The position numbers were made by a program, and so were the translations under genes. Positions 6,621-61,546 of a DNA stretch of 64,000 bases are shown piece by piece. A model generated the notes under the pieces. That model was not told the DNA's origin and ran no database searches. It worked only from the letters and a program-made list of their open reading frames with translations. How positions within the stretch are numbered: the stretch's first letter is position 1; each line of letters begins with the position of its first letter. Source of the stretch: Nostoc sp. T09 (GTDB taxonomy: Bacteria; Cyanobacteriota; Cyanobacteriia; Cyanobacteriales; Nostocaceae); contig NZ_MTAV01000210.1 of the NCBI RefSeq assembly GCF_002154695.1, positions 7,528 to 71,527 on the forward strand. The letters run 5' to 3'.

Positions 6621-6653
6621 AATTTGCGATCACAGTATTATCCAGGTAGAAGT

Positions 6654-8526: not shown

Positions 8527-8528
8527 AG

Positions 8529-9791: not shown

Positions 9792-9968
9792 AAAATTAAC
9801 CACAGATACACACAGATAAATTTGGGCTAGTTCCAGAACCAATGATGTAAAACCCTAGTTAAAATAATATGTAAGTAGATGAAATTAATTCAAACTAAAA
9901 CTTACTCTCGCTTCTGTCCTCTTTGTTAGTAATATAAATTTTCTCTTGTATTAGGTTGTTCGGCGTAT

Positions 9969-10724: not shown

Positions 10725-10829
10725 AGGTGATATTTTCTACCCATTGCGTATAGGCGAAATAACTTTTAACTACAGGGTTTTAGCCCAAGTATTTTTAAAT
10801 TAATAGGAAATGTTTCTTATTCTACTTGG

Positions 10830-25191: not shown

Positions 25192-27036
25192 ATGCAAATC
25201 TGCCAAAATCCCAATTGCTCAAATCCATTCAATCATGACGGCAATAGATTTTGCATAAGTTGTGGACAAAGCAACTTTGGCAAGCTACTCAGAAACCGCT
25301 ACCGTGTATTAAGGCTATTAGGTGAAGGTGGTTTCAGTAGAACTTATGCAGCAGAAGATGTAGATAGACTAGATGCACCTTGTGTAATCAAGCAATTTTT
25401 TCCCCAAGTTCAAGGAACCGGACAACGTACTAAAGCAGCAGAATTCTTTAAAGAGGAAGCATTTCGCTTGTATGAATTGGGAGAAAATCATACGCAAATT
25501 CCCCGCTTACTAGCTTACTTTGAACAAGGTTCAAGCTTATATCTTGTCCAAGAATTTATTCAAGGAAAAACACTTTTACAAGAAGTTCAAGAACAATCCT
25601 TTACTGAAACAGAAATTCGCCAACTTTTAGCTGATTTATTACCAGTTATTGATTTCATTCACTCACATAATGTTATTCATCGGGATATCAAACCAGAAAA
25701 TATTATCCGCCGCGATAGTGATGGTAAACCCGTATTAATTGACTTTGGTGGTGCTAAACAGGTAACCCAAACTAGTTTAGCTAGACAAGCTACAGTAATT
25801 TATACAATAGGTTACGCTCCCACAGAACAAATGGCTGGATTTGCTTGTCACGCCAGTGATTTATATGCTTTGGGTGTAACTTGCGTGCGTCTTTTAACTC
25901 AATGTTTGCCTTTACAAAATACTGATGGACAGATTTATGACAATCTTTATGATGCCATGAATGCTAAGTGGTTATGGCCAGAGCGTTTGCAAGAAAATGG
26001 CATAATCATCAGTGATGGTTTAGGGAAGATTCTCGATAAATTGCTTCAACATTTACCAAAGGATAGATATCAATCCGCAGCAGAAGTTCTTAATGACTTG
26101 AAGTCTACAACCACATCTGAACTAGAAGCGGAGATTTTGGCAATATCTCAACGGATATTACTGCCTATATCACCACCAACAAGACCACAAAAAGCCATAA
26201 AACCCCTACCCTCTTTACAAAGCTTTGAATTTGACGTAGTAACAGTAGATACAGCTGGTAGAGAAGTAAACCGCGATCGCCTTCATAACAAATCCTTTAC
26301 AGAAGAATTGAGTCAAGCGATCGCCCTAGAAATGGTATCGATTCCTGGGGGTACTTTCATGATGGGTTCGCCAGAATTTGAAGGTGATGCTGACGAACGT
26401 CCCCAACGCCTAGTTACAATTGCACCTTTTTTTATGGGTAAATTTCCTGTAACTCAAGCACAGTGGAAAGCCGTAGCCGCTTTACCTAAAGTCAAACAAC
26501 CTTTGAATCCCAACCCATCTAAAAACAAAGGGCCAAATCGACCAGTAGAGAATGTATCCTGGCATGAAGCTGTAGAATTTTGTCTCCGGTTAGCAGAAAA
26601 AACTGGATATGATTATCGTTTACCCAGTGAAGCTGAATGGGAATATGCTTGTCGCGCTGGAACGAAGACATCCTTTCACTTTGGCGAAACCATTACTCCT
26701 GAGTTAGTCAGCTGTAGCAGTAGCGATACTAAACACCGTAAAGAAACCACAAATGTTGGAAGTTTTGAAGTAGCGAACGCCTTTGGATTGTACGACATGC
26801 ACGGGTTAGTGTGGGAATGGTGCGCCGACCCTTGGCACAACAATTATCATGGCGCACCCACCGATGGCGCAGTTTGGGAAGATGGTGGTGATATGCATCG
26901 CCGAGTTCTGCGTGGTGGTTCTTGGAGTTTCGGTGCAGAACTTTGTCGTAGCGCCAGCCGCAGTTGGAATGAGTCAGATGGCGGGTTGAGGATTTGTGGA
27001 TTTCGCGTTGTGTTTTCTGCCGAAGGGACGCTTTAA
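25192..27036 (+). CDS. Ser/Thr protein kinase with N-terminal zinc-ribbon and C-terminal FGE-sulfatase (formylglycine-generating enzyme-like) domain
   Basis: N-terminal CxxC...CxxC (CQNPNCSNPFNHDGNRFCISCGQ). Hanks kinase motifs (LGEGGFSRTY, VIK, HRDIKPENI, DFG, TIGYAPTEQ). C-terminal 250 aa have FGE motifs (GGTFMMGS...NVSWHEAVEFC...WEWCAD...RGGSW). Confidence 0.85.
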   Translation: MQICQNPNCSNPFNHDGNRFCISCGQSNFGKLLRNRYRVLRLLGEGGFSRTYAAEDVDRLDAPCVIKQFFPQVQGTGQRTKAAEFFKEEAFRLYELGENHTQIPRLLAYFEQGSSLYLVQEFIQGKTLLQEVQEQSFTETEIRQLLADLLPVIDFIHSHNVIHRDIKPENIIRRDSDGKPVLIDFGGAKQVTQTSLARQATVIYTIGYAPTEQMAGFACHASDLYALGVTCVRLLTQCLPLQNTDGQIYDNLYDAMNAKWLWPERLQENGIIISDGLGKILDKLLQHLPKDRYQSAAEVLNDLKSTTTSELEAEILAISQRILLPISPPTRPQKAIKPLPSLQSFEFDVVTVDTAGREVNRDRLHNKSFTEELSQAIALEMVSIPGGTFMMGSPEFEGDADERPQRLVTIAPFFMGKFPVTQAQWKAVAALPKVKQPLNPNPSKNKGPNRPVENVSWHEAVEFCLRLAEKTGYDYRLPSEAEWEYACRAGTKTSFHFGETITPELVSCSSSDTKHRKETTNVGSFEVANAFGLYDMHGLVWEWCADPWHNNYHGAPTDGAVWEDGGDMHRRVLRGGSWSFGAELCRSASRSWNESDGGLRICGFRVVFSAEGTL

Positions 27037-30367: not shown

Positions 30368-31561
30368 ATGGAACATATTTCACAACTGGCGGCAAATGTT
30401 AGAGAAAAAACTGCCTTTCCAGATATTCTAGTTATAACTCGGAGCTTTCTGCCGAAAGAGGCTGTAATTAGTGAATACGTATATAATCGTTGTCTCCAAG
30501 ATCCAGAGCGGGTAATTGTTCTAGCTGCTGGTTGCTCAGGCGATAAAGTATTTGATCAAGCTCAAAAATTTCCCATATACCGTTGGCCAATGACTAGAGA
30601 TTGGAGTTTTTTCAATCCTTTACTCAATCTCATATATTCATTTGTACTAGCAATCAAACTATATTTTCGCTATCACTATCGCTATATTGAATGGGGACAC
30701 GGCTACGACTTTCCATCACTTTTGCTCCTAAGCTTTTTCTTACCTATTCGCTTTTTTATCTATCTTCACGGTAATGATATTCTTTGTGGTTTACGCAATC
30801 CTTTATGGCGATCGCTATTTAAATTGACACTTAAACGAGCTGAAGGGATTATTTGTAACAGTTCCTTTACACAAGATTATCTCAGAGCTAGGTTTCGATT
30901 GGATACCCCTACCCACGTAATTAACCCGATGGTTAGGCCAGAGAAATTTAGCCAAGTAACAAGTCAAGGTAATCTCGGTGATTTACGTGCAAGTGTGCGC
31001 CAAATGTACAACATTCCGGAGACAGCAGTAGTTATTCTCTCGGTGGGACAGCTTGTTAAGCATAAAAGCTTTAACCGTGTAATTGATAATTTGCCTTTAC
31101 TATTGACTGTTGGGGTCGATGTCCACTACATAATCTGTGGACAAGGCCCTTGTGAATCGGAACTTAAATCTCTGGCACATCGCTTGCGGGTTGATCAAAG
31201 AGTACACTTTGCTGGATACGTACCCGATCGCGAATTAGCTGGCTATTATGCAGCCTGCGATATATTTGCCATACTCAATCTCCAGGATACGAAAGCTAGC
31301 AATATAGAGGGTTTTGGCATCGTTTACCTAGAGGCGAGTTACTTTGGTAAACCTGTGATTGCTTCTCGTTTAGGTAGTGTCATAGATGCAATTCAGCACG
31401 AAGAGAACGGCATATTGGTTAACCCTAATTCTGGCTATGAAGTTTTTCAAGCTTTCAATCGCTTGTGTAAAGACCAGTCATTACGCGAACAACTCGGTCG
31501 TAAAGGTAAAGAATTAGCCAAACGCAAAACCTTTCACCGTTCGCTATACAAGTTGGAATGA
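30368..31561 (+). CDS. glycosyltransferase family 1 (GT4-type)
   Basis: 397 aa. C-terminal half has the GT1 signature (ICGQGP...HFAGYV...EGFGIVYLEASYFGKPVIASRLGSVIDAIQHEENGILVNP). Confidence 0.8.
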   Translation: MEHISQLAANVREKTAFPDILVITRSFLPKEAVISEYVYNRCLQDPERVIVLAAGCSGDKVFDQAQKFPIYRWPMTRDWSFFNPLLNLIYSFVLAIKLYFRYHYRYIEWGHGYDFPSLLLLSFFLPIRFFIYLHGNDILCGLRNPLWRSLFKLTLKRAEGIICNSSFTQDYLRARFRLDTPTHVINPMVRPEKFSQVTSQGNLGDLRASVRQMYNIPETAVVILSVGQLVKHKSFNRVIDNLPLLLTVGVDVHYIICGQGPCESELKSLAHRLRVDQRVHFAGYVPDRELAGYYAACDIFAILNLQDTKASNIEGFGIVYLEASYFGKPVIASRLGSVIDAIQHEENGILVNPNSGYEVFQAFNRLCKDQSLREQLGRKGKELAKRKTFHRSLYKLE

Positions 31562-38721: not shown

Positions 38722-41346
38722 TTAAGGTGATTGCGTAGGATTAATTGGGCTAATTAAGCCTTGGGCTGTACTAAATAGATTGATCGGACTGCGTCCATCA
38801 GTAATTAAAACACTCTGCAACCCCAAAGCTTGCAATAATCTTGCCTGCATTTCTGGCCCAGCTTGTGCCATTGCAATCAAGGTTTCTGCCCCGATAGCTT
38901 CTACTTTTTGACGGAATTCGGAACTAGTAATTTCCGCCATCCGCTGTGCTTTTTCTATCTCTAAACCAACAAGTGCTTGTTGGTGGGCGAGTTCCGCCAT
39001 CTGCCGGGCGCGTAATTGCTCTAATTCAGCTTCGGCTCGAACCCTGGCGGCTTCTGCTTCTTGTTGTGCCAAATTTACTGCTAATTCGCCTTGAATTCTC
39101 GCGGCTTCTGCTTTAGCTCTGGCTTCAGCGGTAGCATGACCTGTGGCTTCAATTGCGGCATTTTCTGCTTCTAATTCCAATAGGTTTTTCCGCTCACTTG
39201 CAGCTGCACTTTTATCGACAATTGCTTGTCTTTCTAACCTAGCTTTTGCTTCTTGTTCGATACGTTCAGCATCATGACGGGCTGCGGCTTCTTGAGCATC
39301 GGTGGTAATTTGAATCGCAATTTGCACCGATTTTTGCAGACTGTCTAAGGTACGTTCGTCAACAGGTTCGACTGATTGAATATCAACATTAAATATCACC
39401 AAGTTATTGGTTCTAAAACGGAATTCTTCGCGGATATGTCCGGCTTCATCTGTACCAAATACGGCAACGCGAATAATACGGGCAGAATTGCGATGAAATT
39501 CATCAAATTTGACGCCTGCTACTGCACCACGCACCCGCGATGCGATCGCTTTACATGCAGTATCGACAAAATCCGGTACTTGAAACAGTTTGGCGGCTGC
39601 TTGTTCGTCGTGGCGGTCTACGTCAAAATACCAGTTATAAGATAACCGCAGCTGTAGGCGTGCATGGTCGGAAGTTTCGACGGTAAATAAATCCGTCATA
39701 AAATCTGGCCCCAGTAATAACGCCAGTGACTTAATCCGATGCATTTGTTTGGGTACGCCACCAGACAAACTCAACACGCTAAAGGCTTCATCTGGGCCTA
39801 ACATCACCAAGTCGGGGCCAAAGACAGTGCGGGCTGTTCTTTCTTTATAATCATGGATTTGGACGGCGGCGTTTTGAGGAACGTGAAAGACAACCGCCTT
39901 AGTGCGATCGCGTTTTTGTGGTTGAGGTAAATTTGTTTGATCTCGGTGATGCTGTCCCCTGTCAGCAATAGGATCAAATTTATTTGCTAGTAGTTCTTCA
40001 ACGACGGTTGGTAGTTCTTTTTGCCAAAGTTCTTCATAGGGTGTGAGCATATATGCTTGAGGGCCACCCACTAGCTTGAGTTCGCCTGTTTGAATATCGC
40101 GGACGTAGATTCCTTCATTCTTATCTAGGGGGATAGCTTGGCGTTTTTCTACTACTTCCACTTCCACCCGGGGAATATAATCTCTCGGCCCAGCAATCAT
40201 CCACATATCCCCAGGTTGGCGTTGAATCAAAGTTGCGCCTTCACCTTCGCTAAAAGCTTCTCTCGCCCGCAGTAACAATGCTTCTTGCTCACCTAAAACA
40301 TAAACTTTTTCGATACCCTTTTCTAAAGATTCACCAGGATGCAAGAAAAATGAAGTTCTACCTTGACGTACTTCGCGCATTCCTAATTGCGGTTTACCTG
40401 CATCATCAATGGGGTTAACAACAATACACCATTCTCTGTCACCCAAAACGGTAATTTTAACTTCCCCTACCACTACTTCATAAACATCAGGAATGTGGAT
40501 TTCTGCATCTTCAAAAGTTACTAACCATTCATCTCCAGCTTTGCGCTGACGACCAAAAACATCATTAAATGTGCGTTGCGCCCGCAGATGTAAAGCTTTC
40601 TTTTCTGTTAACACATAGGCATTAATCATGCCTACAACTTCTTCATCAACCCCTGGTAAATAGGCTCCTTCTTCTCTAACTAACCATTCTTCACCAGATC
40701 GACGCTGATTACCTAAGCGATCGCTACAATTTTGTCGCGCCAGTAAGCGCAATGCTTGGTTGGGCTTAATTATCTGCGCTGTCACCGTTTCCATGACTTC
40801 TACTTCTACACGAGGAACATAGGTTCCCGGCCCTTCAAACAGCCACTCATCCCCCGCTAACCGATTGATATTCCTAGTTTGAATTTGCCCGTCAACGGTA
40901 ACGGTAATCGTATCAGTGAAATCTCTCAGCGATCGCAGACGCAGTGCTTGATTAGTCTCAACCACTTGCAAGCGCTTGATTTCTCCCTCTAACTCTTCGC
41001 CGGGATAAAGTGGAAATGGTTCTTGCGCAAAGCGGATTTCTTCGTCACCATACCGCAGTTTCACCTGACCAAAGTCATCAGCGATCGGTTGATTTTCCTC
41101 ATTCCGTTGCACTGGATTAGCAACAATACAATAGTGGCGAGGTGGAACCACAATCATTGGCTCAGGTTTTAATATCAACCGTTCGTGGTCGCGCAGCGTA
41201 ATGGTTTGCGGCCCAACTTCCAAGCGGGTAACACCAGTATTGTTGTCTAAAACATGAATAAATTGCTGGGGTTTGAGGCGAATGACACCGCTAGAAGTTC
41301 CCGGAGCATCGCTTTTAGTTTCAATTTTACGTTCGCTTGCATTCAT
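38722..41346 (-). CDS. mvp: major vault protein (MVP) homologue, full length
   Basis: 874 aa. Repeated ~55-aa MVP repeats (…[11 protein letters not shown]…, …[24 protein letters not shown]…, …ALRLLARQN…, …[12 protein letters not shown]…[24 protein letters not shown]…). Followed by the shoulder domain, a long Ala/Glu/Arg-rich cap helix, and a cap-ring tail ([29 protein letters not shown]), collinear with vertebrate MVP over the whole length. Confidence 0.85.
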
Positions 41347-50439: not shown

Positions 50440-50570
50440 GTATTTGTCATTTGTCATTGGTCATTTGTCATTGGTCATTGGTCATTTGTCATTTGTCATT
50501 GGTCATTGGTCAAAGGCCAAGCATTTCTTCCCCCTTGTCTCCCTTGTCCCCCTTGTCTCCCTTGTCCCCG
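50440..50570. repeat. STRR-type heptanucleotide tandem repeats ((tttgtca/ttggtca)n followed by (cccttgt)n)
   Basis: atttgtcatttgtcattggtcatttgtcattggtcattggtcatttgtcatttgtcattggtcattggtca then ccccttgtctcccttgtcccccttgtctcccttgtcc. Lies between convergent gene ends. Confidence 0.85.
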
Positions 50571-50613: not shown

Positions 50614-51909
50614 TTATAGCTGCCAACGGAAGAAAAGAGTTAGCCAACCTAACACTCGCTGCCAAATAGGTCTAGCTTTCCATTCTGTTATAGTTATGCG
50701 ATCGCTTCTGCTAATTCCATAAGCAAAGAATTGCTCAACTAATTGCGCTAATTCTGACTCAGATAAGGAAAGCTGAAGCTCATCATTGTGGAAAAGGCTG
50801 CGAGGGTCTAAGTTGGTACTACCTGTACTGACAAAATTGTCATCGATCAACAATACTTTGGCGTGCATCATACTAGGCTGGTGCTCATAAATTTCGATTC
50901 CAGCTGCTAGTAATTTGGCGTACCCTTCACGTACTGCATAGTAGATTAATTTTTTGTCGTTGTGGAATCCCATAGTTAAAATACGTACATCTATGCCTCT
51001 TTTCTTTGCTGCCAACAGCGCTTGACGAGCATTATGATCTGGCAGAAAGTAAGGGCTAGCCAGCCAAATCCGCTGTGTTGCTGCCAAAAAAGTAGTGTAA
51101 AAAAGGGCACAAACAGTAGAACTGGCAGCCGGAGAGCTACTTGGTGTGACTAGGACAGTTGCACCACCCATCACAGGTGATTTGAATAGTTTTGGCCTAA
51201 GACTAGCTACTCCTCCCTCGTAAAGCCAGTGTTGCATGAAGATCCCTTCTAGGGTAACGACGATTTGCCCAGTGAAGCAAACCTCCAAATCGAGCCAGGG
51301 ATCTGTAACTTCCTTTTTTTGGACACCATCCCAGTGATCGGAAACTCCCATACCCCCGACAAATGCAACTTCCCCATCTATTAGTAACAATTTACGGTGG
51401 GTGCGGATGTTATAAGCGAGGGGAGCTTTCCAAGTAAACTCATGAAAGAAGCGCACAGCAACACCCGCAGCTTTGAGTTTTTGCCAGTAATCTTGAGATA
51501 TTGTTGTTACCCCTAAGCTATCAGCGATAAATAGTACCTCAACTCCAGCCTGGGATCGCTCCGCCAACGCCGCTGCAAATTCGTCAGCGCGACGACCAGG
51601 TGTCATAAAAAATGTTTCAAAGTGAATTGTACTTTGGGCACGCTGAATTGCTTCTAACCTAGCTGTATAAATATCCTCAATCTCAAACCAAAAGTTTGTA
51701 AACTCCCCTTGAGTAATCAATGAGTTAGATACACTCATCATCGCCACAGGAAAGTCAGGTTCAGTTAATCCTGGAACATCTGTTATTCGATAGTTGATTT
51801 TTTTATGAAAAGCTCCAGTCAAGTAAAGAATAAATAAAAGTATAAAAATTAATACTAGTAGCAACTCACTACTTAGCCAGGTTAAGCCACGCAAAAATTC
51901 TATATTCAA
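50614..51909 (-). CDS. cls: cardiolipin synthase (phospholipase D superfamily, two HKD motifs)
   Basis: N-terminal TM pair, then HKD-1 (HRKLLLIDGEVAFVGGMGVSDHW) and HKD-2 (HAKVLLIDDNFVSTGSTNLDPRS). Confidence 0.85.
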   Translation of the reverse strand: MNIEFLRGLTWLSSELLLVLIFILLFILYLTGAFHKKINYRITDVPGLTEPDFPVAMMSVSNSLITQGEFTNFWFEIEDIYTARLEAIQRAQSTIHFETFFMTPGRRADEFAAALAERSQAGVEVLFIADSLGVTTISQDYWQKLKAAGVAVRFFHEFTWKAPLAYNIRTHRKLLLIDGEVAFVGGMGVSDHWDGVQKKEVTDPWLDLEVCFTGQIVVTLEGIFMQHWLYEGGVASLRPKLFKSPVMGGATVLVTPSSSPAASSTVCALFYTTFLAATQRIWLASPYFLPDHNARQALLAAKKRGIDVRILTMGFHNDKKLIYYAVREGYAKLLAAGIEIYEHQPSMMHAKVLLIDDNFVSTGSTNLDPRSLFHNDELQLSLSESELAQLVEQFFAYGISRSDRITITEWKARPIWQRVLGWLTLFFRWQL

Positions 51910-52508
51910 GATTTAAATTCAAAATTCAACTCATATCAATTCTACGTAAAGTTGTATACCTTAATCCTGGTTTTTTCGCTAATAGCTTTAGTGAAAGGCT
52001 GCTGTCTAAAAAATGTTTAAGAAATAAATAAAATCATTCCTTAGATAGATACATACCTTTTAGAATTTCCGTCTATTAGGTAGATCGCGGGAAGTTGCTA
52101 GAGTTTGGGAAGCTAATTAGACAGAAAAAGTAATAGCAACCTCAGTACTCAAAACTAAAAGAAATTATCGCTTATGCTTGGTAATAGCATCATCGAAACA
52201 ACAATTGTGAGGTTAATAAGCATATATTTACAGTATAATTAATATTATTATATCTGTATTTAAAGCTACATAAAATATTTATAAATTTAATTTGTTTATA
52301 ATAATACAAATTTATTTAATAATTTTCCTGTTCTTTAGATAGAGCCTTGCATATCTTTAGATAGAAGACATCGAAAAACAATTACGATAAATTTTGGAAA
52401 TCTTTTCTCGTAAATTTAAAAATCACATTTTGGAGATTTGAAAATCGTCATATCAAGTCATGTTTAAATGTTTATAAATTAAGTTTCCAAAACCAAGATA
52501 TAAAATTT

Positions 52509-53801
52509 ATGAGGAGTGTCAAAGTAGCTACTGTTATTGTTACTTGGAACAAGCTACATCATATCTGCTTGCTAATTGAAGACATTAATAAACTGAATTC
52601 AGAACATTTCCAACTAGATATTTATGTTGTAGATAACGGTTCAACGGATAGTACTCAAAATTACTTAGAGCAGAACTATTCTTCTTTGCTCAAAGTTTTG
52701 CAAACAGGTAGCAATTTAGGGGGTTCTGGTGGATTTTCTTACGGGTTACAATTTGTTAGCCAGCTTGAATATGATTACATCTGGCTACTTGATAATGATG
52801 TTCGTCTAGATCCGCTAGCTCTAGAAGCCCTAGTTCAAACTTTACAAAACCATCCCGAAGTAGGATTGGTTGGTTCTCAAATTCGGAAGCTACAGGAACC
52901 AAATACGATTCAAGAATTAGGCAGCTTTATTAACACCGCAAAAGCACACCTAAAAACCAACTTCGGTAACTATAGTAACATTTCAAATGAGGAAATCCTC
53001 AATGGCAAAGCTTACATTAATGTAGATGTTTGCGCAGCAGCATCGTTATTAGTGCGTAAACAAATTGTCCAGCAAATAGGATTGTTTGAAGATTACTTTT
53101 TACATTTTGATGATGTAGAGTGGTGCTTGCGAGCCAAGCAAGCTGGTTGGATTGTGGCAGTAAATCCAGATTCAATTGTTTGGCATCATTCACCTGATTT
53201 TAAATGTAGACCCTGGGTTAACTATTACGATGAGCGCAATCTTTGCTACTGTTGGCAAAAACATCGACCTGGCTTGGTATTAAAAAGAGTTGTTGTGAGT
53301 TTGCCACGTCTAGTTTACTACGCTGCAACAGGACGGTACTTTCTAGCTGAAGTTTCCATAAGAGGTTTTCAAGACTTTCTTGCAGGTATTCGGGGGAAGA
53401 TGCCAAGAACACTAAACTATACTGAGTGTTCTTTAGAGGAAATTATTAATCAGCCAGCTAAAGTTTTTGTACAATCTAACATTTATCAAGATGATCTACA
53501 AAGCCAAGTTTTAAACAAGATGCAGGTAGAGCAAAAACTTACTTTGTGGCATCCACCTCAACAATTAGCTGAGTATCTTTGGCTATGGCTACTCGCATTT
53601 TTTAAGAAGCCAATAGATATAGCTCTCATTAGCTGTCAACAACCCAAACTTTACGTTCTTAATTTGGCAAAGCAAGTTTACTATTTCACAGGTAATGGTT
53701 ACGTACCTGTGGCAATTAATCTTTTAGGTTTTATCCAGGCAGTTACTCAAACTATCAGCCAAATGTGGCAGATATACTGGCAAGTTCGCAAACTTACTTA
53801 A
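52509..53801 (+). CDS. glycosyltransferase family 2 (rhamnosyltransferase-like)
   Basis: VATVIVTWNKLHH...IYVVDNGSTDST...GSNLGGSGGFSYG...YIWLLDNDVRLDP (DxD) and DDVEWCLRAKQAGW. The GC content is markedly lower than the neighbouring genome. Confidence 0.8.
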   Translation: MRSVKVATVIVTWNKLHHICLLIEDINKLNSEHFQLDIYVVDNGSTDSTQNYLEQNYSSLLKVLQTGSNLGGSGGFSYGLQFVSQLEYDYIWLLDNDVRLDPLALEALVQTLQNHPEVGLVGSQIRKLQEPNTIQELGSFINTAKAHLKTNFGNYSNISNEEILNGKAYINVDVCAAASLLVRKQIVQQIGLFEDYFLHFDDVEWCLRAKQAGWIVAVNPDSIVWHHSPDFKCRPWVNYYDERNLCYCWQKHRPGLVLKRVVVSLPRLVYYAATGRYFLAEVSIRGFQDFLAGIRGKMPRTLNYTECSLEEIINQPAKVFVQSNIYQDDLQSQVLNKMQVEQKLTLWHPPQQLAEYLWLWLLAFFKKPIDIALISCQQPKLYVLNLAKQVYYFTGNGYVPVAINLLGFIQAVTQTISQMWQIYWQVRKLT

Positions 53802-53811
53802 GTTATCACAA

Positions 53812-54813
53812 ATGCCGAACATAGCACCTAATTTAGCATTTCCCTTAGTTTCAATTATAATTTGTACGAGCGATCGCCATGATTTTTTAGCGAAAGCGCT
53901 TAAATCACTTGAACTCTTAAGCTACCCAGATTTTGAAGTCATTGTGATTGACTCTTCATCAACAACACAGACAAGTGAAATAGTCCATAGCGTAACTAGC
54001 AACAATAGCTTAACAGTAAAGTTATTGAAAGTTGAGCCTCGCAATATTAGTTACTCCCGTAATAGGGGAATCAAGTTAGCATCAGGCTCAATTATTGCTT
54101 TTTTTGATGATGATGCCATTCCGCCGTCAGAATGGTTAGAGAAATTGCTATTTAGCTATACCATACATGGAGACAATTGTGCTGCGGTTGGAGGTGCAGT
54201 TCGAGATTTAACTCGTCCCGGTCATCCTCTACAGTTTTGTCGGGGTATTACCAATCTTTTCAGCGAAACAATTGCAATTCGTCCAGCTGATGCTGTGGAT
54301 TATAACCAAGCAAACGGCTTTTGGTTTAACGGTTTAATGGGTACAAATTCATCTTTTAGAAAAGATTTACTGGAGAAAATTAATGGCTATGATGAATTTT
54401 TTGATTACTTTCTCGATGAAACTGATGTTTGTTTACGTCTAATTCAGGCTGGGTATGAAGTTCATTATGCTGATGTTACTGTAAATCACTATCCTCAACC
54501 TAGCCATAATCGCATCGACCAAAAGCATCTTACTTGTTGGTATTCTCTAGCAAAAAATACAACTTACTTTGCTTTTAAGCATGGCTTTAAAAAATTTCCT
54601 TTTGTAATGTTTGTGGCTCGTTTGATATTACTTATAACCCATCGTTGTCTATTGAGGATACTGCGTTTAAAATTTACACATCATCTTCCAAATTCAACTT
54701 TATTAAAGTACATTCAGCAAACTTTTTACGGAATTCGTGTTGGCTGGAATGCTGGAATAAAGCTGCATAAAGGTAATTTAAATAAAGTCAATTTTAGTGA
54801 AGAGACCTGTTAG
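53812..54813 (+). CDS. glycosyltransferase family 2
   Basis: VSIIICTSDR...EVIVIDSSS...AFFDDDAIP (DxD) and ETDVCLRLIQAGY. Starts 10 bp after the previous GT2. Confidence 0.8.
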   Translation: MPNIAPNLAFPLVSIIICTSDRHDFLAKALKSLELLSYPDFEVIVIDSSSTTQTSEIVHSVTSNNSLTVKLLKVEPRNISYSRNRGIKLASGSIIAFFDDDAIPPSEWLEKLLFSYTIHGDNCAAVGGAVRDLTRPGHPLQFCRGITNLFSETIAIRPADAVDYNQANGFWFNGLMGTNSSFRKDLLEKINGYDEFFDYFLDETDVCLRLIQAGYEVHYADVTVNHYPQPSHNRIDQKHLTCWYSLAKNTTYFAFKHGFKKFPFVMFVARLILLITHRCLLRILRLKFTHHLPNSTLLKYIQQTFYGIRVGWNAGIKLHKGNLNKVNFSEETC

Positions 54814-54961
54814 CTTTCCTAAAATTCTACTGGGTAATTTGGTTGGACAAAGGAAAGGTAAAGTTAATTGGGAACGCCAATGAAGTTGTTGAAGCCTACC
54901 TAAAAACTACGGTAAACATCTAAATTTATACTATTCTTCTTTAATATTTAGCATTTTTAAG

Positions 54962-56848
54962 ATGGAGAAAATAAAAATGACCGAGGTTATTGTCAACCTA
55001 AAACTAGAATCGAAAAACACTATAACTGCCGTTAAGCTGCAAAATATTGTCTTGCCAAATACAGATATTTGTACTACAGAAGAACTTTTTTTAAGAAGAA
55101 ACTCTAAGTGTTTGTTGAATTATGAGCAAAATAGAGTTGAGCTTAAACAAGGTGGAATTATAAAATTTGATAGTTATTTTAATAGTTTTTCTGCGCATAA
55201 ATGGCAAGAATATACAAATGTAAAAACAATCAACCTTAACTTAAGCTTGCAAGGAAAGTTTCAAATTAAGCTTTTGCAAGTTGATTACTTTTCAAAAACG
55301 GTCAACTTAGTTAATCAGACAGTAATTACTAGCGATAATTTAGATGACGTTGTTGTATTTCATGATATAGAAATTCAAGCATATAAAGGATTGCTCTATC
55401 TTGAAATTGAGGCTTTAGCAGATAATTGTATATTTACAGGTGGTTACTTTAATGCCAAAGTTAATAACTTACCGGAAATAAATGAGAAAATTGCTATTGT
55501 TATATGTACATATAAAAGAGAAGCCTACATTTATAAAAATATTCAATTATTAGAAAAATATTTATTTATTAATCCAGATCTAGTAAACAGATTTGAAATA
55601 TTTGTGATTGATAATGGTAAAACATTAAATAATTTTGTGAATCCTAAAGTTCATTTAATACCTAATAAAAATACAGGGGGCAGTGGTGGTTATACTAGAG
55701 GAATTTTAGAAGTTTTAGAACATAAAACAGATTTTTCTCACATTATATTTATGGATGACGATGTTGTTATAGCTCCGGAGGCTTTTGAGAGAATTTATAA
55801 CTTTCAAAGAGTTATTAATGACAAAAGCTTATGTATTGGAGGCAGCATGTTAAAGCTGGACAATAAATATGTTCAGCATGAAAATGGAGCAATCTGGGAT
55901 GATGAAATTGTTAGAATCAAGCCCGATATTGATCTTAGAGTTTTAAAAAACGTTTTATTCAATGAGGTTGAGGAGCATATTAATTATAATGGCTGGTGGT
56001 TATTTTGCTTTCCTACAAAAGTTATAGATAATTTTAATCTGCCATATCCATTTTTTGTAAGAGGTGATGATATAGAACTAGCAATCAGATTACAGCAAAG
56101 AATTGTGACTCTAAATGGTATATGTGTATGGCATGAATCATTTGAAAATAAATCTTCCCCTGCATCACAGCATTACTATTCTATAAAGAATGAAATGATT
56201 TTAAGTATTATTTACTCTGATAAGTTCAGTAGAATTAGTGCAATTAAGAAGATTTTAAAATTTAGTCTCAAGGAAGCTTTTTGTTATAAATATAAAACTG
56301 CAAATTTAATTCTACAGGCAGCCTCAGATCTTTTAAATGGTCCTTACTACATAAAAACAATCAACCCTGAAGATAAAAATTTAGAAGTTTTACGTATGAC
56401 AGAGAAATCTGTTAAAAAACCAGAGCTACCTTTTGTTTATGGTAAGTATGAAAAAAGCATTGAGGAAAGAGAAAATAGTTTGCATCGTTTGATAAGGTTA
56501 ATCACATTAAACGGTCATCTTTTGCCTAATTTTTTATTTCATAAGCAGAATAGATTATCTGAAAAAGGATATACAATTGTTCCAACCTATGGGTATAGAC
56601 CTATTAATTTTTTTAGAGCTAGGAAAGGTTTGTACTATAACATAAATAACCATGAAGGTTTTGTAGTAATAATCTCTCGATTAGAATTTTTTAGAATTTT
56701 TGTTAAAACAATAATTATCTGTTTACAAATGGCAGTTAAATTTTCTCGATTGAAACAACTTTATAGAGAGACATTACCTGAACTTACTAATAAAACTTTT
56801 TGGGAAAACTATTTAGAGATTAATAAATCTTCTGGCGATAATTGTTAG
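54962..56848 (+). CDS. large glycosyltransferase family 2 protein with ~170-aa N-terminal extension (GlfT2-like architecture)
   Basis: 628 aa. The central GT-A region has IAIVICTYKRE...IFVIDNGKT...GGSGGYTRG...IIFMDDDVV and a GWWLFCFP...RGDDIELAIRL motif. The N- and C-terminal extra domains are like those of polymerising galactofuranosyl/rhamnosyl transferases. Confidence 0.65.
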   Translation: MEKIKMTEVIVNLKLESKNTITAVKLQNIVLPNTDICTTEELFLRRNSKCLLNYEQNRVELKQGGIIKFDSYFNSFSAHKWQEYTNVKTINLNLSLQGKFQIKLLQVDYFSKTVNLVNQTVITSDNLDDVVVFHDIEIQAYKGLLYLEIEALADNCIFTGGYFNAKVNNLPEINEKIAIVICTYKREAYIYKNIQLLEKYLFINPDLVNRFEIFVIDNGKTLNNFVNPKVHLIPNKNTGGSGGYTRGILEVLEHKTDFSHIIFMDDDVVIAPEAFERIYNFQRVINDKSLCIGGSMLKLDNKYVQHENGAIWDDEIVRIKPDIDLRVLKNVLFNEVEEHINYNGWWLFCFPTKVIDNFNLPYPFFVRGDDIELAIRLQQRIVTLNGICVWHESFENKSSPASQHYYSIKNEMILSIIYSDKFSRISAIKKILKFSLKEAFCYKYKTANLILQAASDLLNGPYYIKTINPEDKNLEVLRMTEKSVKKPELPFVYGKYEKSIEERENSLHRLIRLITLNGHLLPNFLFHKQNRLSEKGYTIVPTYGYRPINFFRARKGLYYNINNHEGFVVIISRLEFFRIFVKTIIICLQMAVKFSRLKQLYRETLPELTNKTFWENYLEINKSSGDNC

Positions 56849-57311
56849 TTTTGTTTTTAGCTAATCCAAGTATCACATTAATTTTGTAACACTTTTTCAA
56901 GTAAAGAACTCCTATTTAATTTTTGAAAAAGGCTACGAAACAACAGGGGAAGGTGAACAAGCCTAATAGGAACGATCAGCCCGAATTTACTAACTGGCAC
57001 ATTTCCAATGGGAGTATGTCGGTAATAGTCAAAAGAGGAAATAGCATTACATTGCTCTCCAAACTTGAATATTTTATAGCTCTGTGTCTATGAGGTGTAT
57101 GAGCTAGAGAAAGTTTTGCCAGTCAAGATTATTGGCAAATCACTGCGTTGAAATCGAAACAGGAAAGATAAGAGTATTCCTCATTAATTATATATAATTA
57201 GTGTCATTAAATTTGAAGAGATTTAAGTGGATATATGTGGGAACAATGGTTTGGAAATCGTGGTCTTGCAGTACTTAATGAGGTTAAACTCTCTCTGTAT
57301 AAAAAATATTT

Positions 57312-58559
57312 ATGAATATTTCTAACTCTCAAATACAACCCTATAGCTATCAGCCTCATATTGTTAAATTGCTTGACTTTTGTAAAGGATTAGCCATTAT
57401 TGGAGTATTTTTAATACACTATCCCCCATCTGAGTTTACAATTTCCTTTGGCTGGCAAGGAGTACATATTTTTATTGTTTTAAGTGCTTTTGGGTTAACC
57501 TACTCTAGATTGAATAAACATAAAACCAATTCTTGGAGACAATGGTATATTAAACGAGCAGAAAGAATATTTCCTAGTTACTGGTTAATAGTTTTACTGG
57601 GATTTTTTCTATTATTTATCAATAGTATTTTCGACTATATATTTAAGCAGGGAAATTTAATACATTCTTTGCTAGAACCAACAGCTACAACAATTATAGA
57701 TATTTTACTTTTAAGAAATTTTTTTGCTAATACTGAGTCTGGTTATCCTAATCCCGCGTTATGGTTTGTCCCTTTTATCATTAGTTTTTATTTAATCTTT
57801 CCTTGGTTACATAAAAAAGTTGTCAAATCTAGGAAAGCTAAGGATTATATATTAGTACTCTTAGTAGCAGCATTTGTTGAGTTTATCTACCGAGGTGTAT
57901 CTATCTACTGGCTTCATAGCAGTCCGATTGCATATGGGCTTCATTTCCTAAAAACTTTACCTAAATCAGAATTTATAATTAGTAATCAAATACCTTTTGG
58001 ATTTTTTCCTTCTAGAATTGCTGAGTTTGTATTAGGGATAGTTGGAGCAATTCTTTTTATGAAGAATCAAAAAAAATTCGAGAAATTGATTCTAAATAAT
58101 TTGGTAGGAGTGCTAGGATTATTTATCTGGATAGCTGGTAATATTTTGCTATCTGTAGGGTTATGGGGATGGGTGTTCTCTGATTTTGTTATTGCTCTAG
58201 GCTTAATTTTATTTGTTATAAATCTAGCTTTTCTTATCCAAAAGAGATTATCACCCTTATTTTCAATTTTAAGTAAATTAGGTATTTTATCTTATTACAT
58301 TTATCTATCTCACTATCTTGTCTTAGTATTTTTTACTACAGAAATAAATAAGCTAGCTACAAAGGCTAATTTACTTAACTCTTTAATTATTAAAGTATTG
58401 ATATTAGGATTTACAATCATTGTAACAGGTATTGCAAGTTGGATGTTAATGCGGTTTGATCGCTCAAAATTTGCAAAAGAGATAGTTCAAAAACTGATTG
58501 CATGGCTCCCTTCACTTCTAAAATTTGGGCTAAATGGTCGAAATTCAACAAAAAAGTAG
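57312..58559 (+). CDS. acyltransferase family 3 (membrane O-acyltransferase, OatA/WecH-like)
   Basis: 415 aa, ~10 TM helices. N-terminal LDFCKGLAIIGVFLIHY...GVHIFIVLSAFGL with conserved His, and R-x10-YW motifs. Confidence 0.8.
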   Translation: MNISNSQIQPYSYQPHIVKLLDFCKGLAIIGVFLIHYPPSEFTISFGWQGVHIFIVLSAFGLTYSRLNKHKTNSWRQWYIKRAERIFPSYWLIVLLGFFLLFINSIFDYIFKQGNLIHSLLEPTATTIIDILLLRNFFANTESGYPNPALWFVPFIISFYLIFPWLHKKVVKSRKAKDYILVLLVAAFVEFIYRGVSIYWLHSSPIAYGLHFLKTLPKSEFIISNQIPFGFFPSRIAEFVLGIVGAILFMKNQKKFEKLILNNLVGVLGLFIWIAGNILLSVGLWGWVFSDFVIALGLILFVINLAFLIQKRLSPLFSILSKLGILSYYIYLSHYLVLVFFTTEINKLATKANLLNSLIIKVLILGFTIIVTGIASWMLMRFDRSKFAKEIVQKLIAWLPSLLKFGLNGRNSTKK

Positions 58560-58853
58560 AAAGGCAGATTCAACATAAAACCCTCTTTAGGCATAATTCT
58601 AGAGAGAAGGCGCAATTTAAAAAATACAAAATTAAACTTATAATTAATTATAAATTTATCTAATATTTAATTAGTAATTAAGAAATTTTTATCAGTATCT
58701 GTTTTTCATTTAAATACCTCCTAGATAATAATGAATTCGTACTTTAGATAGGTACATTTTTGAAAATGTCGCTCCATTAGTAAGAGGGCAGAAAGCTTTG
58801 AGCTTTTTAAAATCGGGTCAGAAGAGAAAAATACTGGCAGTAACTTTTTACTC

Positions 58854-59525
58854 ATGCTATTCCAAGACCGAAGTTTGGCAGGTCAGTTGTTAGCTCAAGA
58901 TTTGGCACTTTATGCTAACCGCCCAGATGTGCTGGTACTAGCCTTACCAAGAGGTGGCGTACCAATTGCCTTTGAAATTGCCAAAGTATTAAATGTTGTA
59001 TTGGATGTTTGGCTAGTACGCAAACTAGGCGTACCCAATCAACAAGAGTTGGCAATGGGAGCGATCGCTTCTGGTGATGTTCAAATAGTCAATCAAGATA
59101 TTGTTCGCGATTTCAATCTCTCGGAGCGAACAATTGCCAAAGTAGCGGCGCAAGAATACCAAGAACTAAAGCGACGAGAACAGCTTTATCGCGGGAATCG
59201 TCCTTTCCCAAAACTACAAGGAAAGACGGTGATTTTGGTAGATGACGGTTTAGCAACAGGTGCAACCATGTTGGCTGCAATTATCGCAGTCCAAAAACAG
59301 CAACCTGCTCGGATTGTAGTTGCAGTCCCCGTTGCTGCATCACCTGCCTACCAACAATTGGCAGACAAAGTAGACGAAATGGTTTGTCTATCGACACCCA
59401 CACCTTTCTACAGCGTTGGTCAGTGGTATCAACGCTTTCCGCAAACTACAGATGATGAAGTCCGCGATTTGTTAAGAAAAGCTGCGAATCGCCATGAGCC
59501 GCTATCCCTTGGTACTCCTAGCTAA
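58854..59525 (+). CDS. phosphoribosyltransferase-domain protein (type I PRT)
   Basis: PRPP-binding loop VILVDDGLATGATM and upstream LALPRGGVPIA; 223 aa. Confidence 0.75.
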   Translation: MLFQDRSLAGQLLAQDLALYANRPDVLVLALPRGGVPIAFEIAKVLNVVLDVWLVRKLGVPNQQELAMGAIASGDVQIVNQDIVRDFNLSERTIAKVAAQEYQELKRREQLYRGNRPFPKLQGKTVILVDDGLATGATMLAAIIAVQKQQPARIVVAVPVAASPAYQQLADKVDEMVCLSTPTPFYSVGQWYQRFPQTTDDEVRDLLRKAANRHEPLSLGTPS

Positions 59526-60998: not shown

Positions 60999-61079
60999 AC
61001 TTTTTATCGCAATCCTATTTGAATTATGAGATTTTTCATGTTCGCGCAGCGTCTCCGATAGGAGAATGTCAGAAAAACC

Positions 61080-61328
61080 TTATTCAGACTCCCCAATTAG
61101 TGTAAAGGCTGCCCAAGCGATGGGATTTGGATACTTGGTCAACATTGCTTGCCGCAATGCCTGTGCTTTATCTGGATTTGCTTTCAGGTGTTGATAAAAT
61201 GCCATCATTAAATCTGCTGTGGGGACATCTGGTACAGACCAGAGTGAGACAATCACACTTGGTACTCCGGCAGAAATTAGCGATCGCGATCGTCCAATCA
61301 CGCTATCTCCTGTGACTCGCCCTTGCCC
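61080..61328 (-). pseudogene. C-terminal remnant of a CHAT-domain protein
   Basis: The ~83 translatable codons (…GQGRVTGDSVIGRSRSLISAGVPSVIVSLWSVPDVPTADLMMAFYQHLKANPDKAQALRQAMLTKYPNPIAWAAFTLIGESE*) are the last conserved block of a CHAT protease domain. An in-frame stop lies immediately upstream, so there is no protease core. Confidence 0.5.
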
Positions 61329-61546
61329 GGTGATGATGACGCGGGGACACGGAAACGGGGAGACGCGGAGATTTGTGTGTAGCTAGATTTTAGAGAAAGA
61401 GTATAAGAAATTGGGAACTGTTGCTGATTGCCCGTTCCCTATTCCCTTGTTTCCCAACTTTAAAACTTGTACAATGCCCAGCAAAACCCGGATATGGTGG
61501 GCATTGCTCTAAGTTTTATTTCAAAAATCAAATAGGAATTCTATAT

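Follow-up and report, generated by a model that had tools for sequence, protein, structure and literature searches.

Three glycosyltransferase genes and an acyltransferase gene in the most AT-rich part of the analysed window, i.e., of the whole stretch of 64,000 nucleotides, raise the question which product they serve and how long they have resided at their present locus. The host, Nostoc sp. T09, is a cycad-root Nostoc. A preliminary description had taken positions 51910-58700 for a horizontally acquired glycan-modification module. We arrive at a different answer and assign a probability of roughly 0.7 to it: what lies here is a cyanobacterial cassette for galactofuranan assembly of the ABC-transporter type, present in reduced form and resident for a long time.

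The four open reading frames and the glycan-related gene content given in the preliminary description were confirmed by Pfam. All are located on the forward strand and encode GT2a (52509-53801, GT2), GT2b, a generic family-2 glycosyltransferase with a DDD motif (53812-54813, GT2), a GlfT2-like three-domain processive glycosyltransferase (54962-56848, Glft2_N, GT2 and GlfT2_domain3) and an AT3-family integral-membrane O-acyltransferase without SGNH domain (57312-58559, Acyl_transf_3, PF01757, 94.7 bits). The same holds true for the flanking genes. On the left, a cls-like PLD-family gene (50614..51909, reverse strand) encodes two HKD/PLDc_2 domains (Pfam PLDc_2, twice) and reaches 238 bits with the NCBIfam cardiolipin synthase model, under the cut-off of 290. 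It is an ancestral neighbour of the metallophosphoesterase gene, an adjacency kept in three metagenome contigs; in Calothrix sp. NIES-2098 cls is not at the locus. The STRR-type array (50442..50569, no strand assigned; TRF, repeat family D1/D2) exists as described and consists of ten heptamers ATTGGTC (50442-50512) and a 9-nt repeat (50529-50569). The array follows the 3' end of cls, with the metallophosphoesterase gene on its other side, and therefore does not abut the island; it is missing from the sister strain Nostoc sp. 106C and is mentioned here as context outside the cassette. On the right follows a type I phosphoribosyltransferase (PRTase) of the TT1426 family (58854..59525, forward strand, Pfam Pribosyltran) that matches PDB entry 1wd5 (E 6e-39), while a PDB sequence search yielded no match to glycan ribofuranosyltransferases. 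The PRTase is not demonstrably a member of the glycan system.

The GC content of 51910-58700 (0.317) is the lowest of any 6.8-kb stretch in the window (mean 0.402, sd 0.027); in a window scan, the next-lowest stretch outside it (0.363) fell on the other polysaccharide cluster at 1-6.8 kb. The drop noted earlier is therefore real, but the value of roughly 30% across 52509-58559 conceals two tiers. Relative to 42 other ORFs (mean 0.421, sd 0.035), GT2a (0.377) and GT2b (0.362) deviate by -1.3 and -1.7 sd, the GlfT2-like gene (0.285) and AT3 (0.300) by -3.9 and -3.5 sd. The 600-bp leader has a GC content of 0.259.

The GlfT2-like ORF comprises 628 amino acids as called; the start is likely at position 54977, giving 623 residues. 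The protein can be aligned over its full length with GlfT2 from M. tuberculosis and Nocardia (PDB 4fix, 9dtp; E 1e-34), and its AF2 model (pLDDT 89.7) matches 4fiy/9dtp across the whole length with Foldseek TM scores of 0.80-0.82 vs. 0.3 or less for other GT-A enzymes. Residues D260-D262, D364-D365 and H386 do not vary among 37 homologues, and the two aspartate motifs are equivalent to Asp256-258 and Asp371-372 of GlfT2 (PMC7168186). The protein is a full-length GlfT2 homologue, in agreement with the earlier call of a GlfT2-type polymerase, and its predicted role is that of a galactofuranan polymerase. For GT2a (430 aa), the top PDB sequence match is the GlfT2 catalytic domain (E 4e-15). It aligns with residues 171-592 of the 623-residue GlfT2-like protein (23% identity), with which it has GGSGG, DxD, DD and WH motifs in common. 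It is paralogous to the catalytic and C-terminal part of that protein and lacks the N-terminal beta-sandwich. GT2a may serve as priming galactofuranosyltransferase and GT2b as adaptor-sugar transferase. Scores with the NCBIfam equivalog models for GlfT1 and rhamnosyltransferase were far under the cut-offs (GT2a vs. GlfT1: 41 bits, cut-off 330). In most relatives, namely five other genomes, GT2a and GT2b form a single fusion protein, with 767 residues in NIES-2098 (N-terminal half 85% identical to GT2a, C-terminal half 80% to GT2b) and 757-783 residues in Mojavia, Nodularia, Anabaena and Coleofasciculaceae. T09, 106C and Gloeotrichia have them split, as two separate ORFs.

Orthologous cassettes in other cyanobacteria are more complete. 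Nodularia sp. CChRGM 3473 and Anabaena GCA_963920895.1 contain the order GT2ab-Wzm-Wzt-GlfT2 followed by Glf, a Coleofasciculaceae MAG contains GT2ab-Wzm-Wzt-GlfT2, and in Gloeotrichia a Glf coding region is located directly 3' of the cassette. The T09 proteins are orthologous to those of the full cassettes from Nodularia, Anabaena and Coleofasciculaceae (60-74% identity), and gene order and low GC are the same, whereas the T09 cassette differs by the GT2a/GT2b split, the loss of the transporter genes, the absence of an adjacent glf, the gain of AT3 and a different 5' leader. In the interval that separates GT2b from the GlfT2-like gene, tblastn revealed a 90-nt relic from the 3' end of cassette-type wzt (54834..54923, forward strand; VIWLDKGKVKLIGNANEVVEAYLKTTVNI*) with 75% identity to residues 218-245 of Nodularia Wzt (E 5e-11). 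In T09, wzm has been deleted, and so has about 85% of wzt, of which these 90 nt are all that is left. A wzm relic is also found in NIES-2098 (30 bits vs. a shuffle maximum of 18.5), and partial wzm and wzt persist in Mojavia.

No glf, transporter or initiating phosphoglycosyltransferase gene was found inside or beside the T09 cassette. An annotated Glf of 811 amino acids, a Glf-GT4 fusion protein, is encoded on another T09 contig from the same sequencing sample. The window itself contains, 43 kb upstream and on the forward strand, a Wzm-like permease (7654-8526) and a Wzt (8529-9791). Of this pair, which had been noted before, Wzt is backed by Pfam (ABC_tran and Wzt_C, the C-terminal carbohydrate-binding domain), while Wzm has no Pfam match. 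The pair is of the CBD type and, with 37% (Wzt) and 20% (Wzm) identity to the Nodularia cassette proteins, no orthologue of the cassette transporter. It is the sole candidate exporter in the window and may act in trans on the cassette product. An ABC-transporter route is plausible because the orthologous cassettes have their own Wzm/Wzt.

The AT3 gene has a history of its own. It is identical (100%) to Nostoc sp. T09 BV372_32065; its homologues are cyanobacterial throughout, the next best showing 73% and 71% identity. O-acetyltransferases that consist of AT3 only and act on O-antigens or exopolysaccharides are exemplified by Shigella phage Oac and Rhizobium ExoZ/NodX. The T09 protein resembles them in that PF01757 covers its whole length, in its hydrophobic segments (at least 9, about 10), in the lack of SGNH, in a TM1 histidine (H36) and an R-x-x-R motif (R82, R85), and in being a single gene that varies between strains and borders a glycan locus; it differs from them by the absence of a phage or mobile-element context and by close relatives that are not linked to glycan clusters. 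According to blastn breakpoints, the segment 57052..58705 (forward strand) with the AT3 gene cannot be aligned with strain 106C. There, the slot is occupied by a different AT3 (22% amino-acid identity), beside which a 51-nt remnant of the 5' end of the T09-type gene is found. Among close strains only the AT3 gene differs, and it behaves like a recently exchanged cassette. It could be a roaming single gene in a permissive intergenic spot, unrelated to the glycosyltransferases and acting on another substrate. The closest relatives (71% and 60%) stand alone in unrelated contexts, no AT3 gene is present beside the cassette in NIES-2098, Gloeotrichia or Mojavia, and 463 nt separate AT3 from the GlfT2-like gene; given the lone relatives and the lack of AT3 in NIES-2098, the putative coupling of AT3 to the polymer is deduced from adjacency. 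Two non-orthologous AT3 genes in one slot and on the same strand in T09 and 106C are, on the other hand, the pattern expected if selection favours an O-acyl variant of the product made locally, and a hexapeptide-family acyltransferase adjoins the Anabaena cassette, so that we regard an unrelated AT3 as rather unlikely.

Among known systems, the arabinogalactan galactan machinery of mycobacteria and Nocardia (GlfT1, GlfT2 and Glf with Wzm/Wzt-type ABC export) shares with the Nostoc cassette the three-domain GlfT2 architecture and fold, the conserved aspartate motifs and a smaller GlfT-like GT2 accompanying the polymerase, and in cyanobacterial relatives also Glf and Wzm/Wzt in the same cluster. 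Differences lie in the position of transporter and Glf outside the T09 cluster and in GT2a, which carries a GlfT2-like C-terminal domain, fails the GlfT1 model and is normally fused to a second GT2. An arabinogalactan core is excluded as the product, since the cyanobacterial host is of the Gram-negative type. For the Salmonella T1-antigen, a GlfT2 orthologue, the Galf-polysaccharide polymerase STM0724, works with Wzm/Wzt (STM0722/0723), polymerizing Galf on an adaptor built by separate glycosyltransferases, and the gene for the initiating WecA has another genomic location (PMC11294581). The parallel concerns a Gram-negative pathway that depends on an ABC transporter and combines a GlfT2 orthologue with an adaptor made by separate enzymes. 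Unlike the Nostoc cassette, the T1 system employs WbbO/WbbN as adaptor glycosyltransferases, its locus also makes ribofuranan via a gPRT/PRP enzyme, to which family the Nostoc PRTase has no similarity, and it is phase-variable through a recombinase, which is absent at the Nostoc cassette.

Identity to biochemically characterized GlfT2 is just ~21%, and the donor specificity of the Nostoc enzyme is therefore deduced from analogy and from gene neighbourhood in relatives. A GlfT2 fold reused for a donor other than galactofuranose would be consistent with this value, with the absence of glf from the window and with the size of the family (1,454 clusters at 50% identity, E<=1e-30), most of which is uncharacterized. 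It is nevertheless improbable, as glf adjoins the orthologous gene in Nodularia, Anabaena and Gloeotrichia, T09 possesses Glf, and the GlfT2 orthologues characterized so far (23-38% identity) all make Galf polymers in Galf-homopolymer systems (PMC11294581).

A recent insertion of the whole 6.8 kb in one piece, between cls and the PRTase gene, decorating an existing O-antigen, S-layer glycan or exopolysaccharide, had been suggested by the low GC. It would also agree with the patchy occurrence of GlfT2-like homologues in cyanobacteria (one named Nostoc cluster vs. more than 60 Nostoc clusters for Glf), with different cassette loci in Gloeotrichia, Mojavia, Nodularia, Anabaena and Coleofasciculaceae, with PRTase loci lacking the cassette in N. 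carneum and C. membranacea, and with an imperfect direct repeat of ~118 nt bracketing the cassette. In related strains AT3 is variable, while the three glycosyltransferase genes occupy the same locus in the same order in 106C and NIES-2098. Their dN/dS values (0.14-0.24) are similar to those of flanking housekeeping genes, amino-acid identities fall within the range seen for the flanks, and so does dS in either comparison with the exception of the GlfT2-like gene vs. NIES-2098 (0.81, flanks 0.37-0.61). The three genes are low in GC in all six hosts examined, at whatever locus, and equally so in every orthologue down to 60% identity, which is not the signature of an un-ameliorated donor. Integrase, transposase or tRNA genes were not found for the cassette, nor were close homologues on plasmids. 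Shared locus, divergence in step with the flanks, dN/dS and low GC in each host argue against recent import, as do the mixed histories of an old glycosyltransferase core and a swapped AT3, and a set of primer and polymerase speaks against mere decoration. Recent arrival as a unit is consequently quite improbable. The glycosyltransferase core has been at the locus since before the split from 106C and NIES-2098, and low GC is a persistent property of the family. Since this family is accessory and patchy in cyanobacteria, it has probably spread laterally in earlier times.

The right member of the bracketing repeat is the conserved 5' leader of the PRTase gene (58728..58853, forward strand) with the dyad TACT..ACAT-N9-ATGT..AGTA. 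It is ~80% conserved in five genomes, two of which have the PRTase in a different context, and is probably a promoter/operator; an RNA structure is unsupported (-3 kcal/mol), and Rfam gave no match. The left member (52032..52149, forward strand) is a diverged, full-length relic of this leader, detected by nhmmer with an HMM from the five PRTase leaders (E 1.2e-6, model positions 11-129 of 130; 106C copy, E 4e-9), and stops where the PRTase ATG would come next. The glycosyltransferase operon has a conserved leader of its own (52226..52507, forward strand, ~280 nt) that features two CTTTAGATAGA motifs and a ATTTTGGA(A/G)AT repeat, without convincing RNA structure. It is ~80% identical in NIES-2098 and occurs in Mojavia at a different genomic locus (E 2e-16); it travels along with the cassette. 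The motif YTTAGATAGR occurs four times in the 64 kb (0.7 expected), exclusively in the intergenic regions on either side of the cassette.

That the cassette is a decaying, non-functional remnant with glycosyltransferase genes on their way to pseudogenes, as the wzt/wzm relics in three genomes, the missing adjacent glf and the split GT2ab might suggest, is hardly probable in view of ORFs intact in three strains under the purifying selection described, intact catalytic motifs, a conserved 280-nt leader, a Glf encoded elsewhere and transporter loss that occurred independently in several lineages with retention of the glycosyltransferases, a recurrence that argues for an exporter in trans.

For the galactofuranan assembly cassette, we infer sugar identity, order of glycosyltransferase action, exporter and AT3 acceptor as follows. 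A phosphoglycosyltransferase encoded elsewhere would provide a polyprenyl-diphosphate-linked sugar at the cytoplasmic membrane face, on which GT2b and GT2a would build a short adaptor/primer. The 623-residue GlfT2-like enzyme would extend this primer processively with galactofuranose, the UDP-Galf donor being supplied by the Glf-GT4 fusion protein. Because the cassette's own wzm-wzt have been deleted, the finished chain would have to be exported by Wzm/Wzt in trans, and the polymer may be O-acylated by the adjacent AT3. Glycan modification, as proposed in the preliminary description, understates such a gene set, which would make a polymer backbone. The galactofuranan cassette represents an uncharacterized yet recognizable kind of system that is related to the mycobacterial galactan machinery.

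With a GC content of 0.317, the region 51910-58700 is lower than any other 6.8-kb stretch of the window, for which the mean is 0.402 (sd 0.027); the second-lowest, at 0.363, is another polysaccharide cluster at the left end. In full agreement with the preliminary description, four plus-strand open reading frames occupy exactly the positions reported there and Pfam bears out the gene calls: two GT2 glycosyltransferases, GT2a (52509-53801, 430 aa) and GT2b (53812-54813, 333 aa), a 628-aa protein combining Glft2_N, GT2 and GlfT2_domain3 (54962-56848, GlfT2-like) and an Acyl_transf_3 protein of 415 aa (57312-58559, AT3). By the same method the flanking genes encode a PLD/cardiolipin-synthase-like protein (cls, 50614-51909, minus strand) on one side and a type I phosphoribosyltransferase (PRTase, 58854-59525, plus strand) on the other. 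The sharp drop in GC content is real for the region but not uniform, since GT2a (0.377) and GT2b (0.362) are only mildly low relative to the remaining 42 ORFs, which average 0.421 (sd 0.035), while no other genes of the window deviate as strongly as the GlfT2-like gene (0.285) and AT3 (0.300). An STRR heptamer array also exists, at 50442-50569, with cls between it and the cassette. Together with an adjoining 9-nt repeat (50442-50569) it is inserted in comparison with Nostoc sp. 106C, whose metallophosphoesterase gene and cls are separated by 25 nt.

The second low-GC polysaccharide cluster (1-12932) contains genes for a GT4 (4343-5638, GC 0.353), a GT2 (5646-6620), a Wzm-like protein (7654-8526) and a Wzt with a carbohydrate-binding domain (8529-9791, GC 0.350). 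Two DUF1565/beta-helix proteins are encoded near it, at 10830-12932 (with four SLH domains) and 19772-21886, and further GT4 genes occur at 22445-23533 and 30368-31561.

Enzymes of the GlfT2 class are homotetramers that transfer galactofuranose (Galf) processively in defined beta-linkages. Their three-domain architecture, i.e., an N-terminal beta-sandwich, a GT-A catalytic domain and a C-terminal helical domain, was found by Pfam over the full length of the GlfT2-like protein, which probably starts at 54977 and then comprises 623 aa, as in the gene call on a contig from run SRR7276604. The 628-aa form aligns end to end with GlfT2 from M. tuberculosis and Nocardia (E 1e-34), a phmmer comparison with 4fix and 9dtp covering residues 23-620 (E 1e-34). 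An AlphaFold2 model built from 37 homologues (pLDDT 89.7) matched GlfT2 structures over the whole length with TM scores of 0.80-0.82 (4fiy_A 0.81/0.80, 9nj1 0.82) vs. 0.3 or below for every other glycosyltransferase. The MDDD and GDDIE stretches line up with the GlfT2 motifs, and D260-262, D364-365 and H386 are unchanged across the 37 cyanobacterial and Firmicute homologues. In GlfT2, the metal-binding DXD residues Asp256-258 as well as Asp371-Asp372, which act in catalysis, are required (PMC7168186), and the DDD and DD motifs are their counterparts. The family is large, comprising 1,454 clusters (50% identity, E<=1e-30). Exact-sequence look-ups of the 628-aa form and of P0042 gave no match, and PLSDB holds no close homologue on plasmids, the only matches (25-28%) stemming from Roseobacter-group and actinobacterial plasmids.

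Among solved structures, GT2a matches the catalytic domain of GlfT2 best (E 4e-15), and the protein aligns to residues 171-592 of the GlfT2-like protein, that is, to the catalytic and C-terminal domains without the N-terminal sandwich. This best PDB match and the paralogy to the GlfT2-like protein speak against an ordinary GT2. GT2a scored below the cut-offs of both the NCBIfam GlfT1 equivalog NF050113 (41.4 bits, cut-off 330) and the rhamnosyltransferase model TIGR01556 (64.8 bits, cut-off 200). Because both equivalog models are missed by a wide margin, we term it GlfT-like rather than GlfT1. GT2b is a generic GT2. Both genes precede the GlfT2-like gene in all genomic contexts retrieved, and in five genomes they are fused into one protein of 757-783 aa (GT2ab); GT2a of strain T09 shares 85% identity with its half of the fusion in Calothrix NIES-2098, and GT2b shares 80% with the other half.

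Homologues of the GlfT2-like protein with 45-91% identity occur exclusively and patchily in cyanobacteria, including Nostoc sp. 106C (91%), Calothrix NIES-2098 (77%), Mojavia (70%), Hydrococcus (68%), Gloeotrichia (64%), Nodularia (62%), Anabaena (60%) and Leptolyngbya (54%); the next matches are from Clostridia (~35%). Several relatives carry fuller cassettes. The gene order is GT2ab-Wzm(268 aa)-Wzt(253 aa)-GlfT2-Glf in Nodularia and Anabaena, Glf being UDP-galactopyranose mutase, while a Coleofasciculaceae MAG has GT2ab, three additional genes and Wzm-Wzt-GlfT2. In Gloeotrichia, a coding region for Glf (81% identical to that of Nodularia) is located 3' of the GlfT2-like gene. Each GlfT2 orthologue examined is part of a system that makes a Galf polymer; one such polymer is the T1 antigen of Salmonella, which depends on Wzm/Wzt (PMC11294581). 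On the basis of the GT2ab/Wzm/Wzt/GlfT2/Glf neighborhood in relatives, we assign the system to a putative ABC-transporter-type pathway for a galactofuranose polymer. In the full cassettes (L010 11974-13770; L016 11925-13697) Glf comprises 590-598 aa, with an N-terminal extension of ~230 residues that has no Pfam match.

A gene for Glf thus adjoins GlfT2-like orthologues in Nodularia, Anabaena and Gloeotrichia and is absent from the window itself; a glf relic sought 3' of the GlfT2-like gene was not found in strains T09, 106C, NIES-2098 and Mojavia, Gloeotrichia being the one genome of this search to yield Glf. A source of the donor UDP-Galf was found outside the window, namely the Glf-GT4 fusion P0145, which is annotated for Nostoc sp. 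T09, is encoded on another contig of this strain (L015 1459-3894, 811 aa) and is present in sample SRR7276604, as is the contig of the window. Fusions of 811 aa of this type were seen in dozens of Nostoc, Tolypothrix, Calothrix, Scytonema and Anabaena genomes, and therefore Galf-containing glycans may be a general, unstudied feature of the Nostocales.

Dedicated genes for Wzm and Wzt reside beside the glycosyltransferase genes in Nodularia, Anabaena and Coleofasciculaceae, while strain T09 retains a 90-nt wzt relic only. The 148 nt that separate GT2b from the GlfT2-like gene encode VIWLDKGKVKLIGNANEVVEAYLKTTVNI* (54834-54923). These are the final ~29 codons of a Wzt of the cassette type (75% identity to residues 218-245 of Nodularia Wzt, E 5e-11). 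Strain NIES-2098 carries a wzm relic that corresponds to residues 24-65 and is interrupted by stops and a frameshift (L007 9848-9972; 30 bits vs. a maximum of 18.5 among 200 shuffles), and Mojavia carries the C-terminal part of Wzm (residues 192-268) and a Wzt with an internal deletion (L009 9285-9969). The three-gene arrangement in strain T09 is therefore a reduced derivative of the full cassette, and the independent relics in NIES-2098 and Mojavia indicate repeated loss of the dedicated transporter with the glycosyltransferases kept. The latter are retained under purifying selection, with dN/dS values of 0.14-0.18 against 106C and 0.15-0.24 against NIES-2098 (flanking genes 0.04-0.21). Since the own transporter is lost, the glycosyltransferases are under purifying selection and the donor is available, export of the galactofuranan would have to be mediated by Wzm/Wzt supplied in trans. 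The sole exporter candidate within the window is the Wzm/Wzt pair 43 kb upstream with its carbohydrate-binding Wzt, which may act here as the preliminary description suggested; orthology of this pair to the cassette transporter is ruled out by identities of 37% for Wzt and 20% for Wzm. The window has 46 non-overlapping ORFs with a length of 110 aa or more; Pfam covered 37 of them, all except nine shorter ones at 13.2-18.6 kb, 33.3 kb and 41.9 kb, and detected no initiating phosphoglycosyltransferase of the WecA/WbaP type among these 37. The Wzm/Wzt-dependent Galf polymer of Salmonella T1 has its initiating enzyme encoded elsewhere, and by analogy the same may hold for the cassette in strain T09.

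The preliminary description had proposed a likely horizontally acquired glycan-modification island, a view that drew on the deviant base composition. Low GC content is typical of many polysaccharide loci, and here it is found in all six hosts at whatever locus and down to 60% protein identity (0.28-0.31 for the GlfT2-like gene, 0.34-0.37 for GT2ab). Because orthologues deviate likewise in every host, the deviation is not diagnostic of recent transfer and is a stable property of the gene family that gives no sign of recent arrival. Furthermore, 106C and NIES-2098 carry the glycosyltransferase core at this very locus, and the genes to either side of it are conserved. Values of dS for the glycosyltransferase genes were 0.16-0.28 between T09 and 106C (flanks 0.07-0.44) and 0.43-0.81 between T09 and NIES-2098 (flanks 0.37-0.61), the only value outside the range of the flanks being that of the GlfT2-like gene against NIES-2098 (0.81). 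The presence at the same locus in close relatives, together with dS values that all but once fall within the flank range, is at odds with a recently acquired island, and the core is older than the divergence of the three strains. Neither tRNA genes in the whole window (ARAGORN) nor integrases or transposases near the cassette (Pfam on ORFs) were detected. Patchiness of the family and differing loci in other genera indicate older mobility. Absence from the locus in relatives combined with discordance to the flanks applies to the AT3 segment 57052-58705 alone. In place of a recent island, synteny, dS, family-wide low GC content and the exchange of AT3 point to a reduced GlfT2-type cassette of long standing, probably for a galactofuranan, whose acyltransferase can be exchanged.

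Membership of AT3 in its family is documented by PF01757 (94.7 bits vs. a gathering threshold of 31, residues 21-374); the protein has at least nine hydrophobic segments, lacks an SGNH domain and is 100% identical to BV372_32065 from Nostoc sp. T09, and the same gene arrangement occurs on the contig from run SRR7276604. The sequences of strains T09 and 106C match at 93% between cls and a point 204 nt beyond the stop codon of the GlfT2-like gene and can be aligned again from 58705 onward, while the segment 57052-58705 that holds AT3 cannot be aligned between them. In 106C, this slot contains another Pfam AT3 gene, whose product is 22% identical to that of T09, plus 51 nt left over from the 5' end of a gene of the T09 type. 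Because of this remnant, we regard the T09-type gene as the older one that was replaced in 106C. NIES-2098 has no AT3 gene at the locus. The closest relatives of T09 AT3 (73, 71 and 60%) are cyanobacterial and, where the context is known, encoded by lone genes beside unrelated genes. Position is the basis for coupling AT3 to the glycosyltransferases, as two non-orthologous genes occupy the same slot in T09 and 106C, and such a swap suggests selection for an O-acyl variant of a putative local product.

The cassette is bounded by two leaders. That of the PRTase gene (~120 nt, 58728-58853, plus strand) is ~80% conserved in five Nostocales genomes whatever the context, including two in which the gene is located elsewhere without a cassette, and features the dyad TACT..ACAT-N9-ATGT..AGTA. 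An HMM of this leader recovers a diverged full-length copy by cls at 52032-52149 (plus strand, E 1.2e-6; 4e-9 for the copy in 106C), such that an imperfect 118-nt direct repeat brackets the cassette. The repeat may have arisen when the cassette entered a cls<-leader->PRTase junction or, alternatively, by local duplication; an empty cls-leader-PRTase junction was not found in any genome. As the adjacency of cls and the metallophosphoesterase gene is kept in three metagenomic contigs, cls is ancestral and was lost in NIES-2098. The second leader, that of the glycosyltransferase operon (280 nt, 52226-52507, plus strand), is present in 106C, in NIES-2098 and, at another locus, in Mojavia, and thus moves with the cassette in this subgroup. 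It contains two CTTTAGATAGA sites and a repeated ATTTTGGA(A/G)AT element. The sequence YTTAGATAGR occurs four times in 64 kb (0.7 expected), exclusively in the two bounding intergenic regions, and CTTTAGATAG(A/G) sites are putative binding sites for a regulator. In other cassettes, TTAGATAG yielded scattered 8-mer matches at chance level.

A structured RNA or riboswitch in the leaders is rejected on RNAalifold energies of -3 (PRTase) and -10 kcal/mol (glycosyltransferase operon) with almost no covariation; Rfam gave no match in the whole window at gathering threshold and chance matches only for both leaders at E<=10. We therefore favor promoter/operator DNA for both, the PRTase leader, devoid of RNA structure and Rfam match, probably being an operator for some regulator. 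A promoter/terminator scan gave counts not above those for shuffled sequence and accordingly says nothing about operon structure. A role of the PRTase as a glycan phosphoribosyltransferase like the Ribf-transferase of Salmonella T1 is dismissed, as its best PDB match is TT1426 (1wd5), an entry without assigned function, 7shg-type enzymes are not matched and the gene is present elsewhere without the cassette.

Other genes of the window also deserve mention. An 874-aa homologue of the Major Vault Protein, a eukaryotic protein and unusual in a bacterium, is encoded at 38722-41346 (minus strand; four Vault repeats, Vault_2/3/4 and the MVP shoulder domain, E down to 2e-67), and a 614-aa fusion of a Ser/Thr protein kinase and an FGE-sulfatase (formylglycine-generating-enzyme-like) domain at 25192-27036 (plus strand). 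Between decarboxylase and SDR genes, 106C has an ORF of 1390 aa (L002 12411-16583) of which T09 retains only a short remnant (~61036-61544), called as a 73-aa CHAT-domain fragment on L001.

Our literature search found no paper characterizing a cyanobacterial galactofuranose polymer pathway and, on Galf in polysaccharide from Nostoc, nothing beyond compositional reports. The locus and its fuller relatives provide a concrete gene set (GT2ab, Wzm/Wzt, GlfT2-like polymerase and Glf), an uncharacterized example of a recognized system type whose mechanism involves no unprecedented element. As a caution, low GC content in this polysaccharide locus is a stable family trait and no evidence of recent transfer. 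Three related strains with one polymerase and AT3 of type A, type B or none constitute a natural experiment, and several lineages independently lack a dedicated exporter with glycosyltransferases under purifying selection. Strains T09 and 106C are endophytes of the coralloid roots of Dioon cycads (PMC6350856), a habitat in which surface glycans are plausibly important. A joint reading, to which we assign as a whole a chance of about one in four, would be that cycad-symbiotic Nostoc and, as the Glf-GT4 fusion is nearly universal there, perhaps many Nostocales make a mycobacterial-type galactofuranan with an orphaned GlfT1/GlfT2-like set whose own Wzm/Wzt was lost on repeated occasions and which relies on a heterologous exporter, that the bracketing PRTase-leader and TTAGATAG elements place cassette and PRTase under a single regulator, and that non-orthologous AT3 swaps in one slot create serotype-like surface variants. 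If true, these variants would matter for host or phage recognition.
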